Shown: positions 7,039-16,081 of the stretch, piece after piece | How positions within the stretch are numbered: position 1 is the first letter of the stretch | Layout of the letters: every line of letters begins with the position of its first letter | From: a virus | Taxonomy: Duplodnaviria > Heunggongvirae > Uroviricota > Caudoviricetes > Herelleviridae | DNA length: 64,000 nt | Virus record (IMG/VR): IMGVR_UViG_3300027628_000013 | Direction: 5' to 3' (one strand) | The notes under the pieces: model-generated | The model's input: only the letters and a program-made list of their open reading frames with translations | Database searches by the model: none | Told to the model about the DNA's origin: nothing | Translations under genes and position numbers: made by a program

Positions 7039-8430
7039 ATGGAATTATATATAGACCTAAGCAAAGGTATGAACACTGCTCAACTAGTCAAGAAACCGGT
7101 ACAGGTACACGGAAAGATGGGTAAGATGTTTACACGTATGCAGTGGGTTGACCCTAGAACTGGACAGCCTGTACATGAAGAGCATGGGGGTAAGGAAGAT
7201 GCCCACCACGACTTAGTACACAATAAGATGGACAGATTTGATAAGCTTGGTGTAGCTCAAAAGCTCGTAAACGAAAAGGAGCATAAAGCACACACAAACC
7301 AATTTCTTGACGCAACTGGATATAAAGGTGCTAGGGGAGAAGGCATATTAGACCAAGGGAAGATGAGAGACCACATTGCACAACACCTAGACAAGATGCC
7401 AATAAGCAGAATTAAGCCCCATGTACCAGCACACCTGAAACAGCACATGGTTGACTATGCAGAGCAGGAACAGCCTAAAGCTGGAGGTACCCCTCTTGGA
7501 CTTAAGCATACTGACCATGGATTACCTGAGGAAGAGGTAAAGAAACGACACGGTGAGGTAGGGGAGTTAGACACAAAATCCCTCACACAGGGCAAAGCAG
7601 TATGGTCAGTTAATGAATTTAAACATGCCTTTAGACAAGCTAAACACTCCATGGAGTACGACTTTGGTAAACGTCCTGAGCAGGTATGGGATGATACTAT
7701 GAGAGGTACAACCAAGGAAGGTTTAGAATCAGTATTCTCACACCCTAATGGAGACTACAGCGCCAAACTAACTGACGTTATGATGTACTCTGATGAGGTA
7801 GATGGGGAGATGGTGGGTCTATGTGAGGTAGGATTTGAGCTGTCAGGAGAGAAGGGTTCAGTAGGAACCATTACTAGGGCAGTAGGCAGAAAGCAAGATG
7901 GCTCTATGTATATCAAGAATGAGTTCTTGGAACTAAATGGTAATGCTCAAGGCAAAAGCCTAGCTAACAGTATATATGGACGGTCAGACCAGTTTTGGAG
8001 ACACCTATCTAATGGTAAGCCTGTATCAGTCAATCTTGAAGCTAACATTAGTGTAGGTGTCTACGCTTGGGCTAAGAAGGGCTTTGATTTTAAAACTCCT
8101 GATGGATTATCTCAGGCTAAGTCAGAATTGAAGGCTTTCTGTAAGAAGAATAAGATAGACGTTAATGAAGTCTTGGAGCATAGCGGTCATAAGTCGATAG
8201 ATGACCTGAAACATACTTGGGACTTTGCTACCCTAGACAACGGTAAGAAGTATGACCTCAATAGTGTTGCACCCGATATGTATAAAGGAGAGCTTAAAGG
8301 TGAGGGTCACTTTGGTAAAGCCTTCATGATAGGCGGTATGGAGCCTTGGGAAGGTAAGAAGACCCTTAACGATGACTCAGTACATGAAAAGGTACATGAT
8401 ATACATGAGAAGCACAAAGGAGGTCAATGA
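7039..8430 (+). CDS. His-rich hypothetical protein, member 1 of a three-gene paralog family that shares an N-terminal module
   Basis: N-terminal LYIDLSKGMNTAQLVKKPVQVHGKMGKMFTRMQWVDPRTGQPV is shared with the next two genes. His is abundant, often in a HxxxH pattern. Confidence 0.6.
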   Translation: MELYIDLSKGMNTAQLVKKPVQVHGKMGKMFTRMQWVDPRTGQPVHEEHGGKEDAHHDLVHNKMDRFDKLGVAQKLVNEKEHKAHTNQFLDATGYKGARGEGILDQGKMRDHIAQHLDKMPISRIKPHVPAHLKQHMVDYAEQEQPKAGGTPLGLKHTDHGLPEEEVKKRHGEVGELDTKSLTQGKAVWSVNEFKHAFRQAKHSMEYDFGKRPEQVWDDTMRGTTKEGLESVFSHPNGDYSAKLTDVMMYSDEVDGEMVGLCEVGFELSGEKGSVGTITRAVGRKQDGSMYIKNEFLELNGNAQGKSLANSIYGRSDQFWRHLSNGKPVSVNLEANISVGVYAWAKKGFDFKTPDGLSQAKSELKAFCKKNKIDVNEVLEHSGHKSIDDLKHTWDFATLDNGKKYDLNSVAPDMYKGELKGEGHFGKAFMIGGMEPWEGKKTLNDDSVHEKVHDIHEKHKGGQ

Positions 8431-8431
8431 T

Positions 8432-10045
8432 ATGGCAGAACAGCTACAACGTAGTGTTGAGTATAAGTCAAAAGGCAAGGAAGGTCTTTCTCCTAAAGGA
8501 GACTTATGGTTACATGAAGATATAATGAATGACGAGTACGAGAAGAAAACAAACCGTGCTATTAAGTCAATGAACGTTGAGAAATCCTTAGGAGGTCTAT
8601 ATATTGACCTTGAAAAGGGTAGGGTTGATACCGCTAAACTAGTGAAGAAGCCTGTTCAGGTACATGGTAAGAATGGACAGATGTTTACACGTATGCAGTG
8701 GGTAGACCCTAAGACAGGTCAACCAGTTAGCCAAAAGGATGCAGTAGACAGCCATGTTAAGCATGATATGTCCCCTGAGGATAAGCAAGCCTATGTGGAA
8801 AAGCATGGAATAGAGCACAAAACTAGCGAGCACCCTCAGATTCATAACATGCATATGACAAGAGCCATTAAGGAGCACTTGTATAAGAATCCTCATATTA
8901 TTGGAGCAGACCATCTACATGAGCATGATGAGGATGTAGCACCTCATAACCAAGGTGTCAAGGAGCAGGTAGATGCTTTCCATAAGCATATGTCTAAACA
9001 TCCTGAAAAGTACTACCAACTTATGAAAGAGCATGGTATTGCAGATTCAGACCCACGTGTAGGTAAAGAGGGTGACGAAAAGCAGAAATCAGCCATTGAA
9101 CATATGAAGAATGTAACAAAGATGAAGGCTCATTTAAAAGAGAACCCTCATATTATGGAGCACACGGAGATTCCACAGGCTAGTAAACCTACTAGTCCAG
9201 CCCCATCTAGAGCACAGCAAGGTGGAAATGACATAAAGGGCATACTTAAGAACATGAGTCCTAAAGAGCACTATGACTTAATGAAGCAACATGGTATAGC
9301 TGACTCAGACCCACGAGAAGGTAAAGAGGGTGCAGAGAAGCAGAAAGCCGCTATTATGCATATGAAGAATATGGTGGCTTTAAGGAAGAAGATTGAGCAA
9401 GACCCTTCTATCCTGAATATAGGCGAAAACGGTGAGAAACATGAGTCAGAGGTCAAACGTGTTGAAAGCATGAATGACGAGCAAAAGAATGTACATGATG
9501 TAAAAACTTTCCTAGGAGGGTTGAGCAAGGAGCACAAGAAGAGATTGATTGACGAATACGCTCACATCCCACATATCAGAGACCGTAAACGCCATGACAA
9601 TGAGAATATTGACTATATGCATGGGGTAACTGCCCTACGTAAGCACTTTGAAGAGAATCCTAAGGAAATGGATAAACACAAGGCTGATGCAGATAAGGAA
9701 AAGCTACATGACCTTAAGATTCCTAACAAGAAGATGCAGAAGTTCCTACGTGAAGTTGTAGGTTTAAAGGGTGTAGGAGATGCTAGACAAGAAGAGTCAG
9801 GGGTAGAGTGGTCATTTGGTGCTGATAAATCATCTTTTGCTAGGAAGGATACGGATGAGAATGGTAATCCTATTCTATCAATCGTAGACACTGGTAGGGA
9901 TGGTACAGACTGGAATGAGCACACAGTTCCTATGGAGAAGGTTAAGGAATTCTTAGATGGTCTAAGTAAATCTGAGGAGGAAGACCTGTACAAGTCTGCC
10001 CTAGGGGATGTGGAATTTTCTATTGTAAACTGGTGGGAGGTATAA
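8432..10045 (+). CDS. His-rich hypothetical protein, paralog member 2, with an internal tandem duplication
   Basis: Start reset to the ATG at 8432 (RBS AAAGGAGG). It carries the module LYIDLEKGRVDTAKLVKKPVQVHGKNGQMFTRMQWVDPKTGQPV. An internal repeat is present: YQLMKEHGIADSDPRVGKEGDEKQKSAIEHMKN and YDLMKQHGIADSDPREGKEGAEKQKAAIMHMKN. Confidence 0.6.
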   Translation: MAEQLQRSVEYKSKGKEGLSPKGDLWLHEDIMNDEYEKKTNRAIKSMNVEKSLGGLYIDLEKGRVDTAKLVKKPVQVHGKNGQMFTRMQWVDPKTGQPVSQKDAVDSHVKHDMSPEDKQAYVEKHGIEHKTSEHPQIHNMHMTRAIKEHLYKNPHIIGADHLHEHDEDVAPHNQGVKEQVDAFHKHMSKHPEKYYQLMKEHGIADSDPRVGKEGDEKQKSAIEHMKNVTKMKAHLKENPHIMEHTEIPQASKPTSPAPSRAQQGGNDIKGILKNMSPKEHYDLMKQHGIADSDPREGKEGAEKQKAAIMHMKNMVALRKKIEQDPSILNIGENGEKHESEVKRVESMNDEQKNVHDVKTFLGGLSKEHKKRLIDEYAHIPHIRDRKRHDNENIDYMHGVTALRKHFEENPKEMDKHKADADKEKLHDLKIPNKKMQKFLREVVGLKGVGDARQEESGVEWSFGADKSSFARKDTDENGNPILSIVDTGRDGTDWNEHTVPMEKVKEFLDGLSKSEEEDLYKSALGDVEFSIVNWWEV

Positions 10046-10596: not shown

Positions 10597-10635
10597 TAGC
10601 ATACACATTGGTGTATGCTATTTTTCTTTCTTTTT
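10597..10635 (+). terminator. Rho-independent terminator (TAGCATACAC-ATTG-GTGTATGCTA + TTTTTCTTTCTTTTT)
   Basis: Perfect 10-bp stem with a tetraloop and a long T-run. Confidence 0.65.
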
Positions 10636-10689
10636 AGATTTTATGTGAGAGAAGCAACAGTTTGTAGTAATTATAGGGAGGTGCTTTAC

Positions 10690-12270
10690 ATGGGAATTAA
10701 ACAATTCTTTGGGAACCTAGCTGACACTGTTAAGTTAGGTGAAGCTCCTTTTGCTATGAGTAGCGGAATGGATGAAACCCAAAATGACACTATCGCTAAG
10801 TCAGAGCGTGCCCAAGAGTCTAAGGCGATAGTAGAAGACCCAATGGCTATAGTTCAGAGTATGGGGTACAAGGACAAACCCTATTCTTTATCATATGATA
10901 CACTAAAGAGGATGGCAATTAGAAACTCAGTTATATCATCTATTATCTTTACTAGGATTAATCAGATATCTACTTTCTCTCAGCCTGCTAGGTTTACAAA
11001 GGACGGCATAGGGTTTGAGGTGAAACTAAGAGATCCTAAGGCTAAAGGCACAGAGGTACAGAAGAGAATGATGCTGGCTATAGAATCTTTTCTAGAGAAC
11101 TGTGGGTATGACTATAATCCTTCTAGGGATAGCTTTGATACTTTTCTGCGTAAAGTTCTATGGGACTCTTTAGTATATGACCAACTTACTTTCGAGATTG
11201 TTCCTGATAGAATGGGTAGACCTGCTGAGTTGTATGCAGTAGATGCTTCTACTATACGTGCGGCAGAGGTTGATGTAGAGTCACTAGGAGAAGATGAGTT
11301 TGTAACCAACACTACAGAGCAGGAAAACCACTTTGTACAGCTTATACAAGGTACTGTAGTTTCAGAGTTCAATAATACAGAGTTAGCCTTCTGTGTACGT
11401 AACCCTAGAACGGATATTAATGTTCAACCTTATGGATTCTCTGAGTTAGAAATTCTTATACACCAAGTAACTTCACACTTATATGCAGAGGAATACAACT
11501 CTAGATACTTCTCTCAAGGTGGTACTACTAAAGGGGTAATGAACCTTAAAGGTCAGAATATCAGTAAGCCACAACTTGATGCTTTCCGTAGACAGTGGCA
11601 AGCACAGTTATCAGGTGTTACAGGTGCATGGAAGACTCCAGTAGTATCAGTAGAGGGCTTAGAGTACATTAACGTAGCTCAGTCTAACCGTGAGATGGAA
11701 TACGAGATGTGGATGAACTACTTAATCAATATCTGTTGTGCAGTGTACCAAATTGACCCTTCAGAGATAAACTTCCCTAACCGTGGTGGTAGTGGCGGTG
11801 GTGGTGGAGCTTCTATCATGGAAGGCGGTATGGAGTCTAGATTAAAGAACTCTAAAGATAAAGGTTTACGTCCTTTACTACGATTCCTAGAATCTGTCAT
11901 CAATAAGCACATTGTAAGACGATTTGGCTCTGAATACTCCTTTAACTTTGTTGGTTTAGACCAAGAAACAGAGCAGGAGAGAGCAGAACTGAATGAGAAG
12001 TTAGTACGTACTCGTAAGACTATCAACGAGATTCGTAAAGAAAATGATGACCCGCCTATTGAGGGAGGGGACATTATACTTGACCCTACGTTCACTAACT
12101 ATCTCTTACAGAAACAACAGATGGAACAAGCAGACCAAATGCAACAAGACCCTAGTGCTGGTGGAGACCCTAATGCTGACCCTAATGAAGAGCAAGACCC
12201 TGAGGAAGCTAACCAACAGCAGGAAGATGCAGATATATCACAAGGTATAGACGAGCAGTATAGTCAATAA
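10690..12270 (+). CDS. Portal protein (putative)
   Basis: Size is about 527 aa, immediately upstream of the protease-scaffold-capsid genes. The C-terminus is acidic and Q-rich. The start was reset from the track (10615) to the ATG at 10690, behind RBS AGGGAGGTG. Confidence 0.6.
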
Positions 12271-12352
12271 AGTATGTCGAATAATGACTCTACAAGATTT
12301 TAGTCTTGTAGGGTTATTTTGATATTGAATATTAGATATGGAGGTGAGTGAC

Positions 12353-13111
12353 ATGAATGATAAGTTTAATTTCATGATGCCTATGGATATCGCTAAGTCA
12401 GAAGATGGTGAAGACCGTTGGATGATTCGTGGATATGCGTCTACTGATGCACAGGATAGACAAGGCGAGTCACTAGTACAGAAGGGACTAGATTTTAGCG
12501 ACTTCGTTAACCATGGATTTTTTAACTATGACCACAATAACTCCATTATACTTGGTTACCCAACGGATGCCTGTAAGGTAGACGATAACGGTTTCTGGGT
12601 AGAGGGTGAGTTACTGAAAGGTATACCTGAAGCTGAACGCATGTGGCACCTATCTTTAGCACTTAAGAAGTCTAATGCGCCTAGAAAAGTAGGCTTCTCT
12701 GTAGAAGGTAAGGTCATTGAGCGTGATGGTGATAAGGTGACTAAAGCCAAGATTTATAACGTGGCTATCACAACAAACCCAGTTAATACGACATGTACAT
12801 GGGATGCAGTAGTTAAGTCATTTGCAGGGGTAAAGGAAGAGCCTATTAGATTCGATAATGTTAGTAAAGCATTAGAAGCTGGCTATGAGACTGACCCTAG
12901 ACAAATGGAAGGTGGAGATGTCTTCCGTAAGGAAAGCCTAGAGAAAGACTTAACGAACCTCTCATATGTGATAGACAGTGATGCAAATAAGAAAATTCTT
13001 AAAGAGAAATTGGCAAATAAGTCAATGACTAACCGAGAACTAACTTTGTACTTACAGCTTACTAAGGGTTGGTCAAGACAAGAAGCCCAAGACTTCATTA
13101 AGAAAATCTAA
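12353..13111 (+). CDS. Prohead (head maturation) serine protease, HK97/S78-like
   Basis: N-terminal region RGYASTDAQDRQGESL resembles the S78 protease core. It sits between portal and scaffold. Its C-terminal 40 aa duplicate the N-terminus of the capsid protein. Confidence 0.55.
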   Translation: MNDKFNFMMPMDIAKSEDGEDRWMIRGYASTDAQDRQGESLVQKGLDFSDFVNHGFFNYDHNNSIILGYPTDACKVDDNGFWVEGELLKGIPEAERMWHLSLALKKSNAPRKVGFSVEGKVIERDGDKVTKAKIYNVAITTNPVNTTCTWDAVVKSFAGVKEEPIRFDNVSKALEAGYETDPRQMEGGDVFRKESLEKDLTNLSYVIDSDANKKILKEKLANKSMTNRELTLYLQLTKGWSRQEAQDFIKKI

Positions 13112-13135
13112 CATTAATATATAGGAGGTGCCAAC

Positions 13136-13951
13136 ATGGGTGCAGAAAATACTAATGTGCAAAACCATGATGAACTTATTAACAAGTCTCTAGAAGAGAT
13201 TGATGAGTTGGTAAAAGGCATGGAAAAGGCTGAGGAAGAGCAGATTTCTAAGGCATTACCACAGGATGACGCTACACCTGATGAGGTATCACAAGATACT
13301 CCACCAGCAGAAGAAGGTGCTGAACAAGACCAAGCTCCTACTCAAGAGGGTGCAGGGGATGATGCTGACGTAGATACTGACACAGAAGCAGAAGAGAACG
13401 AGCAAGAGGACGATGAAGTAGAGAAGTCTTTAGAAGACACTATGAAGGGTAATGAGGGTGTACGCAAAGCATTAGAAGTATCTGAGTTCTTAGATGAGCT
13501 TGTAAAAGGTATCTCTACTGTAATCGGTAACCAAAGCGTTACTTTGAATAAATCTTTAGCGTCTAATGAGCAATCTCAAGCATTGCTAGCTAAATCTTTT
13601 GAAGGTATCGTGAAATCACAGAAGGCTGTTATCGGTATCACTGGTAAACTTCAGAAGTCCATTCACGCTTTAACTGAGAGACTTGAAGCTGTAGAAGCTC
13701 AACCTTTAGTACGCAAATCAGTACCTAATGCTAAAGCAATTGAGAAATCTTTCCCTGCTAGTACTGGAGCACAAAACTCAGGTAATACAACTAACAGCAC
13801 ATTAAGCAAGGGCGTAGCTGTTCAGCGTCTATCAGAGGAAGTAATGAAAGGTAATTCTTCTTTAATGAACGATGTTCTAGCATTAGAAGGTTCAGGGAAC
13901 TTTAATTCCCTATCAGCTGAAGCTAAGACATTCTTAGGATTAACACAATAA
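13136..13951 (+). CDS. Scaffolding protein (putative)
   Basis: Highly acidic N-terminus, predicted coiled-coil, located directly upstream of the major capsid gene. Confidence 0.5.
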   Translation: MGAENTNVQNHDELINKSLEEIDELVKGMEKAEEEQISKALPQDDATPDEVSQDTPPAEEGAEQDQAPTQEGAGDDADVDTDTEAEENEQEDDEVEKSLEDTMKGNEGVRKALEVSEFLDELVKGISTVIGNQSVTLNKSLASNEQSQALLAKSFEGIVKSQKAVIGITGKLQKSIHALTERLEAVEAQPLVRKSVPNAKAIEKSFPASTGAQNSGNTTNSTLSKGVAVQRLSEEVMKGNSSLMNDVLALEGSGNFNSLSAEAKTFLGLTQ

Positions 13952-13981
13952 TTTTTTTATATATCACGGAGGTGGACACGA

Positions 13982-15391
13982 ATGTTTACTAATCTTAATG
14001 AAAACAACCAAGGCTTTGGTATTGCTGAAGCTTCACAGGTTGAACAGTTAAATAAAGCGTTAGAAGCAGGCTATGAGGTTAACCCTCTTAACCTAGAAGG
14101 CGGTGGCGCTTTCCGTGTTGAATCACTAGAGAACAGCTTAAAAGTTCTTACTTACGGTGACCAACACATTAAGTTTTGGAAGAAAATTCCTAAACAAAAA
14201 GCGTTCTCTACAGTAGAACAATACGGACAGTTAATTGACTACGGTCGTGGTCAAGGGGCTTTCGTAGGTGAAGGTCAGTTACCTGATACTAACGACTCTA
14301 CTTACGCTCGTAAGGCAGCGTTCGTTAAGTTCCTAGGTACTACTCGTGAAGTTACACACCCAATGACATTAGTAAATAGTGCATTCGGTAACGTTGTAGC
14401 TCGCCAAAACCAAGACGGTATCCTATGGATGCTTAAGCAAATTGAGCAATCACTATTCTGGGGAGATAGTAAACTAGCTCCTGGTGGTGAAGAAGGTCTA
14501 GAGTTTGACGGTATCAACAAAATGATTGATAAAGATAACACTATTGACCTTAAAGGAACTTACCTAGAAGAGAAACATATCAACTGGGGAGCTCAAATGA
14601 TTATTCAGAACTACGGTACTCCAACTGATATCTTCTTACCATTTGAAGTACAAGCGCAGTTCTCTAATGAATTCTTCCCTAAAGAGCGTGTTATTATGCC
14701 AACAAACGCTGGCTACCAAGCTGGTGTAGTTGTTAACAAGTTCATGACTCACGGTGGAGAAGTTAACTTTGAGCCTAACATCTTCTTAAACAAAACACGT
14801 GCGCTACAACCTAACGCATCAAGCTTTAAAGCTCCTGCTGTAGGTACATTAGCGGCTAACTCTACTCCACTTATCGGTACTGATGGCGACTTCGCTAAAC
14901 AAGGTGCTGGAGTATATAAATATAAAGTAACATTCAACAACTCTCATGGTGAGTCTATCCCATCTAATGAAGTTGCAGTTACTTTAGCAGGTTCTGATGT
15001 ATCTAAAGGTGTTAACCTAGACATCACTAACCCAGCTTCTACAGCTTTCCCTATCGAGTACATTCGCTTGTACAGAACAGAGAAAGACCAAAACCAATTC
15101 TACGAAGTAGCTAAGTTCGCTGTACAAACAGCAAGCTCAGGTGCTAAAATGACTTACGTAGATAAAGGTACTACAATTGCGAACACTTACACAGCGTTCA
15201 TGGGTGAAATGTCTCCTGATATTATCGCCTTCAAGCAATTAGCACCTATGATGAAGATGGATCTAGCAACCCTAGGACCAGTAATCCGTTGGATGATTCT
15301 TATGTACGGGGTACCTGTGATATATGCCCCTAAGAAGTGGATGAGATACACTAACATTAAAGCAGACGTACCTGGATTCGTACAAATCTAA
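13982..15391 (+). CDS. Major capsid protein (putative, HK97-fold)
   Basis: 469 aa, following protease and scaffold. Strong terminators lie downstream, consistent with high expression. An N-terminal propeptide-like segment is shared with the protease. Confidence 0.65.
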   Translation: MFTNLNENNQGFGIAEASQVEQLNKALEAGYEVNPLNLEGGGAFRVESLENSLKVLTYGDQHIKFWKKIPKQKAFSTVEQYGQLIDYGRGQGAFVGEGQLPDTNDSTYARKAAFVKFLGTTREVTHPMTLVNSAFGNVVARQNQDGILWMLKQIEQSLFWGDSKLAPGGEEGLEFDGINKMIDKDNTIDLKGTYLEEKHINWGAQMIIQNYGTPTDIFLPFEVQAQFSNEFFPKERVIMPTNAGYQAGVVVNKFMTHGGEVNFEPNIFLNKTRALQPNASSFKAPAVGTLAANSTPLIGTDGDFAKQGAGVYKYKVTFNNSHGESIPSNEVAVTLAGSDVSKGVNLDITNPASTAFPIEYIRLYRTEKDQNQFYEVAKFAVQTASSGAKMTYVDKGTTIANTYTAFMGEMSPDIIAFKQLAPMMKMDLATLGPVIRWMILMYGVPVIYAPKKWMRYTNIKADVPGFVQI

Positions 15392-15403
15392 TATAGAACG
15401 TAA

Positions 15404-15455
15404 AAATGGATGGGGAGAAAATTCCCATCCATTTGCTTTGTTTAAGCAAACAAAG
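15404..15455 (+). terminator. Tandem hairpins after the capsid gene (AAATGGATGGG/CCCATCCATTT 11-bp stem; CTTTGTTT/AAACAAAG 8-bp stem)
   Basis: Two perfect inverted repeats lie back to back directly after the capsid stop. There is no long T-run, so they may be attenuating or processing structures. Confidence 0.45.
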
Positions 15456-15469
15456 TGTGGAGGTTCTAT

Positions 15470-16081
15470 ATGGTAACATGCCAATTATGCGGTAAGCAGA
15501 TGAAATGGATACAAAATACTCACCTTGCTAAACATGGGTACACTCTAGCTGAGTACAGGATAGATTTCCCTAATTCCCCTGTCAAGACAGAAGAGATACA
15601 GAAAAGACTAGAGAGAAGAGGTCAAAGAAAGCCCATTAGGTTTTGTGCTAGAAAAGGGTGTGGAAATACTCTGAATAAGGGTAACAAATACTGCTCCAGT
15701 AAATGTAACGCTTTAGATAATCCTGAGGTGGGTCTTCACCATAAAGGGTATACTACTCATCTTAATCCCAACTATACAGATGGCACCTACTCCTATGGAA
15801 AGTCTCAGAAGCAAAAAGCCTATGAACGAGACAAAGGTAAGTGTCAGAGATGTGGGTGTGATGTAGGTAGTGGTACTAAATATGGGGTGCATCATCTAGT
15901 TCCTAGGAGATTGTTTAGGGACAAAGCTAGTGCTGACAGCCTTGATAATCTAGTGACTCTTTGTAGTAAAGACCATAGGGATGTAGAAGCAGAGTTTGTA
16001 GAACATCTATACTATCTGTATATGAATGCGATACACATGGAGCCAAAGCACTTAATGGTATACCTACGTGAGAAAATATAG
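15470..16081 (+). CDS. HNH endonuclease, inserted between the capsid gene and downstream head genes (homing-endonuclease-like)
   Basis: Cys-rich N-terminal zinc-binding region. HNH motif QRCGCDVGSGTKYGVHHLVPRR ... SLDNLVTLCSKDHR. Start reset to the ATG at 15470 (RBS GGAGG). Confidence 0.65.
   Translation: MVTCQLCGKQMKWIQNTHLAKHGYTLAEYRIDFPNSPVKTEEIQKRLERRGQRKPIRFCARKGCGNTLNKGNKYCSSKCNALDNPEVGLHHKGYTTHLNPNYTDGTYSYGKSQKQKAYERDKGKCQRCGCDVGSGTKYGVHHLVPRRLFRDKASADSLDNLVTLCSKDHRDVEAEFVEHLYYLYMNAIHMEPKHLMVYLREKI

Follow-up and report, generated by a model that had tools for sequence, protein, structure and literature searches.

In a 64,000-nt stretch of DNA from a virus of the family Herelleviridae (IMG/VR record IMGVR_UViG_3300027628_000013; this whole stretch is called the window, and coordinates refer to it unless another contig is named), the prohead serine protease and the major capsid protein (MCP) were found to share a block of about 35 residues. 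Judged from its distribution and divergence across the family, the block is an old protein module whose two copies co-vary, and the protease copy is under purifying selection. Comparison with relatives indicates that the shared segment is the cleavage site plus the N-terminal arm (N-arm) of the mature MCP and that the propeptide is not shared. As for its role in the protease, we give about an even chance to the idea that one functional module is present twice, in which case the block would be a self-release site and, as a mimic of the N-arm, would tether the protease. The protease probably cuts itself loose and docks inside the shell like its own substrate.

The similarity between the 3' part of the protease gene and the 5' part of the MCP gene, which had been pointed out in a preliminary description of this DNA, was confirmed by several comparisons. 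BLASTP aligned residues 168-224 of the protease with residues 16-73 of the MCP (28/61 identities, E=2e-10), and the pairwise alignment that the preliminary description had suggested as a check gave a local-alignment score of 111, well above those of 200 shuffles (z=17.8). The core of the shared segment comprises residues 172-211 of the protease (nt 12851-12970) and residues 19-59 of the MCP (nt 14036-14158). Each protein also matched the PHROG family of the other: residues 171-210 of the protease matched the MCP family phrog_752 (1.5e-4), and residues 20-69 of the MCP matched the protease family phrog_1028 (2.7e-7). In a PDB search, moreover, the protease matched SPO1 Gp6.1 via the shared block alone (E=4e-6). 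When all six translated frames of the 64-kb window were searched with a hidden Markov model (HMM) of the block, two copies and no more were found, one in the protease (residues 177-211, K↓ALEAGYETDPRQMEGGDVFRKESLEKDLTNLSY, nt 12866..12970, + strand, 62.9 bits; the arrow denotes a scissile bond, known or predicted) and the other in the MCP (residues 25-59, K↓ALEAGYEVNPLNLEGGGAFRVESLENSLKVLTY, nt 14054..14158, + strand, 67.9 bits), which rules out its presence in further window proteins.

The MCP gene (nt 13982..15391, + strand) encodes a protein of 469 residues with the HK97 fold, which belongs to the SU10_MCP family (PF17236, 9.6e-11) and matches SPO1 Gp6.1 (PDB 9vel, E=5e-243, residues 7-467) and the phi812 MCP (PDB 5lii/9row, about 1e-63). 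The position of the block relative to the maturation cut can be read from two relatives. In the A511 record, the mature Cps is annotated as a mat_peptide from S24 (codon 24; ...EDALK↓SFTTGYGITPDTQ), and the 439-residue chain of the phi812 MCP in PDB 9row/9rox/9roz starts at S25 (...EDVVK↓SFQTGYG), so that both cuts fall at the invariant K that opens the block. By alignment with these proteins, the window MCP would be cut at K25↓A26, and the block would consist of this maturation site followed by the mature N-arm. The predicted propeptide, residues 1-25 (nt 13982..14056, + strand), which lies upstream of the cut as placed with the help of the A511 mat_peptide and the first residue of the phi812 chain, is poorly conserved (amino acid identity 0.49; ratio of nonsynonymous to synonymous differences, pN/pS, 0.48) and has no counterpart in the protease. 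Megablast matches to relatives start only at nt 14051. In the MCP block, K25, A26, L27, G30 and G41 are invariant and pN/pS is 0.20. Virions of phage K yield the tryptic peptide SFQTGYGITPDTQIDAGALR, which places the homologous block in the mature capsid (PMC5258805). The preliminary description had taken the shared part for the capsid delta domain or propeptide, and this view has to be abandoned because the block follows the cut and remains in the mature capsid. Its other proposal, that both proteins carry the same cleavage site, is upheld insofar as the block starts at the known MCP cut of the relatives, whereas self-processing of the protease, which would occur at K177↓A178, is a matter of inference. 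A second site of the same kind, K73↓A74 (KQK↓AFSTVEQY, nt 14198-14203), lies where the mature MCP is highly conserved (K71 and A74 do not vary), and folding presumably protects it.

The protease gene (nt 12338..13111, + strand) encodes 257 residues. The protein matches PF04586 Peptidase_S78 over residues 20-166 (26.8 bits against a cutoff of 21) and phrog_1028, 'head maturation protease' (8.6e-108), and its AlphaFold2 (AF2) model has the herpesvirus-assemblin fold (Foldseek prob 1.0, E about 2e-4, against herpesvirus proteases). The putative catalytic residues H66 and S121 show no variation among 10 distant and 87 closer homologues. The gene order portal, protease, scaffold and MCP is also found in SPO1, phi812, P100, EF24C and others, and the position of the gene therefore fits a prohead protease. 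Because profile, fold and gene position agree, we regard the protein as a Peptidase S78/HK97-type prohead serine protease, for which catalysis is predicted.

The AF2 model of the protease was read as per-residue confidence and secondary structure only, and together with the homologue alignments it outlines the surroundings of the block. The catalytic domain, residues 28-160 (nt 12419..12817, + strand), is modeled with a predicted local distance difference test (pLDDT) value of 85-98 over residues 28-158 and ends in K160-S161-F162, where K160 and F162 are invariant and S161 is nearly invariant among the 87 homologues. This end forms a first candidate autocleavage site, K160↓S161 (VVK↓SF, nt 12815..12820, + strand), which matches the motif K[AS]-hydrophobic and may be cut. 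It is followed by a variable linker, residues 162-176 (nt 12821..12865, + strand), with a pLDDT below 50 and a mean amino acid identity of only 0.31 among nine spouna-like orthologues. Twort-like proteases have no such linker, and in the proteases of Twort, Listeria and Enterococcus phages the K↓SF at the end of the catalytic domain is the start of the shared block itself. In the window protease the block comes next, comprising the predicted self-cleavage site K177↓A178 and the putative N-arm mimic, with K177, P187, G193 and E199 invariant. Residues 162-199, which include the primed sides of both candidate sites and the first half of the block, have a pLDDT below 50, while the second half of the block, residues 201-211, forms a helix that leads into three further helices (215-226, 232-243 and 247-256; pLDDT 79-94). 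The latter make up a C-terminal helical domain, residues 212-257 (nt 12971..13108, + strand), which carries the motif LQLxKGxSRxxA and in which G244 and S246 are invariant. Since AF2 predicts disorder for residues 162-199 and does not dock them on the catalytic domain, this segment is probably accessible. Peptides of the protease are still found when virions of a P100-like phage or of Bc431v3 have been purified.

The occurrence of the block was surveyed in pairs of protease and MCP taken from nine phage records and 80 IMG/VR loci, which gave 52 non-redundant pairs. According to the preliminary description, absence of the block from orthologs would have made the similarity fortuitous, and the survey showed that the block is common to the two proteins in 50 of the 52 loci, with z values up to 26. 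These loci represent Spouna-, Twort-, Bastille-, Brock- and Jasinka-type Herelleviridae, many uncultured relatives and Bordetella phage PHB04. The consensus of the block is h-x-K-[AS]-[LFW]-x-[AT]-G-[YH]-x-x-x-P-x5-G-[GA]-x-x-[LF]-R-x-E-S-L-[ED]-x-x-h-x-x-L-[TS]-[YWF], and it exists in lineage-specific versions, such as KALEAGYE..P...EGG..FR in spouna-like phages and KSF.TG.G..PDTQ.DAGALRRE in Twort-like phages, with both copies differing alike. For genome pairs whose MCP blocks are less than 30% identical, the identities between genomes are 28% for protease against protease, 25% for MCP against MCP and 27% for protease against MCP, but the protease and MCP blocks within one genome are 51% identical, a value above the protease-protease identity in 98% of the pairs. 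Among 22 representatives, 363 same-genome column matches were counted against 264 +/- 12 after permutation, in statistics not corrected for phylogeny, and the surplus falls mainly on the 19 residues that follow the K (P1'-P19'). The preliminary idea of a targeting or co-packaging signal is plausibly compatible with this co-variation. When a profile of the two window blocks was used to search 1.84 billion representative proteins, the matches were MCPs (block at about residues 22-79), proteases (about residues 156-210) and a few longer proteins. Three of the matches, P0256 (FNIP repeats), P0263 and P0268, were judged spurious, being long repeat proteins that matched only part of the C-terminal, helix-forming half of the block; two of them hit several repeated stretches.

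The sequence that opens the block also recurs in the scaffolding protein (271 residues, nt 13136..13951, + strand; phrog_15087 'head scaffolding protein', 5e-75), which itself holds no copy of the block according to the block HMM. Eleven K-[A/S]-hydrophobic motifs were observed in it against 0.9 expected, a number reached by 0/2000 shuffles, and this is the highest enrichment among the 61 open reading frames (ORFs) of the window; examples are INK↓SL, ISK↓AL, VEK↓SL, VRK↓AL, LNK↓SL and LAK↓SF. The motif is significantly enriched in most related scaffolds tested, including those of SPO1, CP-51 and phi812, while Enterococcus- and Bastille-type scaffolds show a smaller excess and those of P100 and SIOphi no significant one. 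In HK97, the sequence K103↓S104-L105 of gp5 fits the motif, S104 being the first residue of mature gp5; the catalytic domain of gp4 ends in K↓SV (...AAMK↓SV), which aligns with K160-S161 of the window protease. These sequence comparisons support K↓[A/S]-hydrophobic as the specificity of this group of head proteases, and the motif would then predict which head proteins get processed. The enrichment in scaffolds, together with the HK97 sites, makes self-cleavage of the protease at the MCP-like site of its block likely. Elsewhere in the window, the second-highest motif enrichment was found in an ORF of 463 residues at nt 7039-8430 (+ strand; 6 against 1.4 expected, p=0.003), which belongs to phrog_25452 and has a C-terminal match to the 'minor head protein' phrog_4611; owing to this enrichment, it is a candidate for a further substrate of the head protease.

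Two kinds of unusual proteases bear on the role of the block. Among the longer profile matches, P0243 and P0264 were read, on inspection of their sequences, as protease-scaffold fusions. No such fusion was found among the cultured phages of the collection searched, and related-locus scans of IMG/VR and metagenome contigs for the fusion proteins gave no matches; the genomic context of P0264 (contig L092) and of its homologue P0283 (contig L093) was obtained by exact look-up of metagenome contigs. The fusion genes encode 430 residues (L092, 1227-2519) and 482 residues (L093, 5001-6449), and in both contigs the MCP gene lies directly 3' of the fusion gene and there is no separate scaffold gene. 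The fusion proteins consist of the catalytic domain, a K↓S block, a GhSxxEA helix and a scaffold-like region in which the cleavage motif is frequent, so that the block sits at the protease/scaffold junction, where a release site is expected. The block of the L092 fusion is identical to that of the downstream MCP at 24/34 positions, and the L093 MCP also has a matching block. In two IMG/VR contigs, on the other hand, the proteases (L077 and L078; 247 and 230 residues) still have the C-terminal helix motif and K↓A sites behind the catalytic domain, but the remainder of the block is gone; the MCPs of both contigs retain it (SKALSAGYQNPP...). The motif LQLxKGxSRxxA thus persists in block-less proteases as well as in the fusions.

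From these observations, a mechanism can be proposed in which the block in the protease has two functions. Cleavage of the MCP at K25↓A26 would remove the 25-residue propeptide and expose the mature arm. The protease copy would provide a K↓(A/S)-hydrophobic site and about 34 following residues in the flexible part that joins the catalytic domain to the C-terminal helical domain, and this arm-like segment might engage whatever the MCP arm engages, that is, a docking groove on neighbouring MCPs, the scaffold or other N-arms. The protease would thereby be co-assembled and held at the inner surface of the shell. Once active, it would cut its own K177↓A178 and/or the invariant K160↓S161, and the freed catalytic domain would digest the scaffold at its 11 sites and the MCP propeptides, leaving behind an 80-residue tail with a new N terminus, ALEAGYE..., like that of the mature MCP. 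Because both copies would have to fit the same partner, they would change together in evolution. What we infer is that these sites are cut in the window phage, that the protease cleaves itself and that the block tethers it: the self-release site from the motif, its position and the fusions, and the N-arm mimic from the fact that some 19 co-varying, constrained residues exceed the needs of a protease cleft and are not required at the scaffold sites. Going further, we suggest only tentatively that the tail acts as a structural mimic at the N-arm docking sites or is paired with N-arms, so that loading, release and maturation would all be read from one co-evolving "arm code". If this is true, tailed phages would have a means of packaging their maturation protease and timing its action that had gone unrecognised until now, and it would apply across Herelleviridae, among them the therapeutic phages K, A511 and P100. 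The natural pair of co-varying peptides could also help to locate the partner of the N-arm in the SPO1 and phi812 capsid structures.

Several points weigh against this mechanism. Cleavage at the block of any Herelleviridae protease is deduced from sequence, and in the window MCP, K25↓A26 is placed by alignment with A511 and phi812, whose sites are K↓S. The co-variation statistics, as mentioned above, take no account of phylogeny. The AF2 monomer of the MCP has a pLDDT below 50 for residues 25-142 and is therefore uninformative on the arm. The fusions keep the block although their scaffold domain already serves encapsidation, which means that tethering would not be its only role, and its loss from the L077 and L078 proteases means that a mimic would be dispensable in some phages.

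The main rival explanation, which is possible if rather unlikely in our view, is that the block is an extended substrate determinant or pseudo-substrate: an exosite of the protease would read the approximately 35 primed-side residues, which the MCP would need in order to be cut efficiently or on time, and the protease's own copy would keep the zymogen latent in cis until assembly and then be cut. Co-variation would in that case reflect co-evolution with the catalytic domain and not with the shell. Such a role would agree with the facts that the block opens exactly at the cut site in both proteins, that co-variation peaks on the primed side next to the scissile bond (P1'-P19'), and that the block survives in fusions whose encapsidation does not depend on it; prohead proteases are, in addition, generally made as latent forms, for example, T4 gp21. 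It is difficult to reconcile, however, with the 11 K[AS]-hydrophobic sites of the scaffold, which have no extended block and which, if they are cut, make a long determinant unnecessary, or with the L077 and L078 proteases, which do without the block while their MCPs keep it. The co-varying residues on the primed side, at least 19, also go far beyond what a protease cleft usually reads, and AF2 leaves residues 162-199 undocked on the catalytic domain at a pLDDT below 50, which is weak evidence against an exosite.

Another explanation, which we regard as improbable, is that the block is a constrained relic, left by an ancestral rearrangement, for instance when the start of the MCP gene was copied into the 3' part of the protease gene or when a larger polyprotein underwent fission; it would now serve just as a spacer and self-cleavage site, with no function for the similarity beyond the first few residues. 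The genes are indeed adjacent and co-oriented, fusion and fission of protease and scaffold clearly occur in the clade, and the protease block has been lost in two lineages. Rates of evolution speak against a relic: pN/pS of the protease block (0.25) is near that of the catalytic domain (0.20), while the true spacer alongside, the linker, shows 0.63. Synonymous divergence among the orthologues is saturated (pS about 0.74), yet the copies are 50-70% identical in nearly every lineage (about 60% in the window) and change in step, where a functionless relic would have drifted apart. Each copy keeps residues of its own; after the conserved R, the MCP mostly has V (15/22 representatives) and the protease P or K, and at MCP position 36, close to where the block ends, T is found in 18/22 representatives where the protease mostly has A or S. 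The slow evolution of the block, the saturation of synonymous sites and the copy-specific residues thus fit neither a neutral relic nor ongoing gene conversion.

Concerted evolution at the DNA level, by gene conversion or recombination between direct repeats 1.2 kb apart and without selection for similarity, is most improbable, for although identical residues are encoded by identical codons at 19/28 sites in the window against 12.1 expected and at 17/29 in the closest relative (L011) against 12.8, and although a 24-nt stretch quoted in the preliminary description is 22/24 identical, that stretch is the best part of an alignment of two 120-nt segments with 74/120 identities (62%), over 37 genomes, 406 of 883 sites have matching codons where 377 are expected, the two copies of a genome are never more than 74% identical as proteins in about 50 lineages, and the copy-specific residues persist across lineages. 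A recent duplication or gene conversion is rejected on account of the synonymous sites. The "duplicated" segment of about 120 nt in the preliminary description is therefore real as a protein similarity, but the word overstates the case at the DNA level, where identity is 62% and synonymous codons agree at a rate near chance; for the same reason, we consider the similarity to be maintained at the level of the protein and not of the nucleotides.

The head module of the window is of the SPO1 type according to the ORF map and the Pfam and PHROG matches, with the portal gene (nt 10615-12270, PF04860) preceding the three genes described above. The closest cultured relatives are Spounavirinae and an Exiguobacterium phage. 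The MCP gene is 77-80% identical in DNA to those of CP-51 and SPO1, the MCP is 81% identical to that of vB_EalM-132, and a Logan metagenome contig carries a protease identical to that of the window. Directly 3' of the MCP gene lies an HNH endonuclease gene (nt 15455-16081, + strand; PF01844, with a weak ROS/MucR-like zinc-finger match), a position occupied by small unrelated ORFs in SPO1 and CP-51, and the gene has probably been inserted as a mobile element. Upstream of the portal gene, an ORF of 557 residues (nt 8372-10045, + strand) contains an internal repeat of about 45 residues, ..HGIADSDPRxGKEGxEKQKxAIxHMKN.., in two copies, and shows PHROG cross-matches to the preceding ORF at nt 7039-8430, with which it overlaps by about 60 nt. 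ARAGORN found no tRNA or tmRNA genes in the whole window (1-64000).

A literature full-text search gave no description of a block shared by protease and MCP, although prior mention is possible, for example, in the SPO1 or A511 genome papers. One close comparison is with HK97 gp4, which belongs to the same family (PF04586), has K↓S directly after its catalytic domain with an implied K↓S-hydrophobic chemistry, and carries a non-catalytic C-terminal extension, as does the window protease (residues 161-257). The extension of gp4 is said to direct the enzyme into the prohead, reportedly a finding of Duda, Oh and Hendrix from 2013. Its sequence GLTKSQAVGLI resembles, by eye only, the LQLxKGxSRxxA of the window (a GhS/TxxxA helix motif). 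The two systems differ in that HK97 has no separate scaffold, the delta domain being in that role, whereas the window protease has a copy of the MCP arm between the catalytic domain and the tail; no similarity was found between the gp4 tail and the N-arm of mature gp5. A match of gp4 residues 20-45 to gp5 residues 90-118, the region of the cut (E=0.018), is probably due to chance, given that it coincides in part with EGYAS, a conserved strand in the catalytic domain.

The herpesvirus proteases, whose fold the catalytic domain of the window protease is predicted to share, offer a parallel in logic. The precursors pUL26 and pUL80a, with the scaffolds pUL26.5 and pUL80.5 (R and M sites), carry the cleavage site and the capsid-binding region of the substrate, and the protease releases itself by cutting there, as is proposed here. 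In the L092 and L093 fusions, the block stands where the R site of herpesviruses sits, at the junction of protease and scaffold. Herpesviruses, lambda C/Nu3 and P2 gpO, however, share the scaffold through nested or fused in-frame genes and hence an identical sequence, while in the window the shared part is a segment of the MCP, encoded by a separate gene, about 60% identical and kept similar by selection. The lambda/herpesvirus model itself, in which the tail of the protease is homologous to the tail of the scaffold, was tried and rejected for the window, since hhalign of the C termini gave a probability of 1%, the block HMM misses the scaffold, and the genes are separate and non-overlapping.

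Two other systems use short mimetic or targeting sequences. The capsid targeting sequence (CTS) of T4 is a short motif of several head proteins that combines targeting with a gp21 cleavage site (L/I-x-E); it lies upstream of the cut and is discarded, while the block of the window lies downstream and would be retained in the mature MCP, and the protease family and specificity also differ. In Staphylococcus phage 80alpha, the N termini of capsid and scaffold mimic ribosomal protein L27 and are cut by the host protease Prp; through this mimicry, different proteins have a common cleavage motif and one enzyme can process them all. There, the motif has about 10 residues, is on the discarded side and serves a host protease, whereas in the window it is the phage's own protease that would mimic its substrate, over about 35 residues and on the side that is kept. 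To our knowledge, the entry, latency and exit of the maturation protease are understood for few models only, namely HK97, T4, lambda and the herpesviruses, all of which borrow a scaffold-type signal; here, if the N-arm mimic is real, a whole family that includes the phages most used against Staphylococcus and Listeria would borrow the capsid protein's own N-arm and cut site, with the two copies co-evolving.

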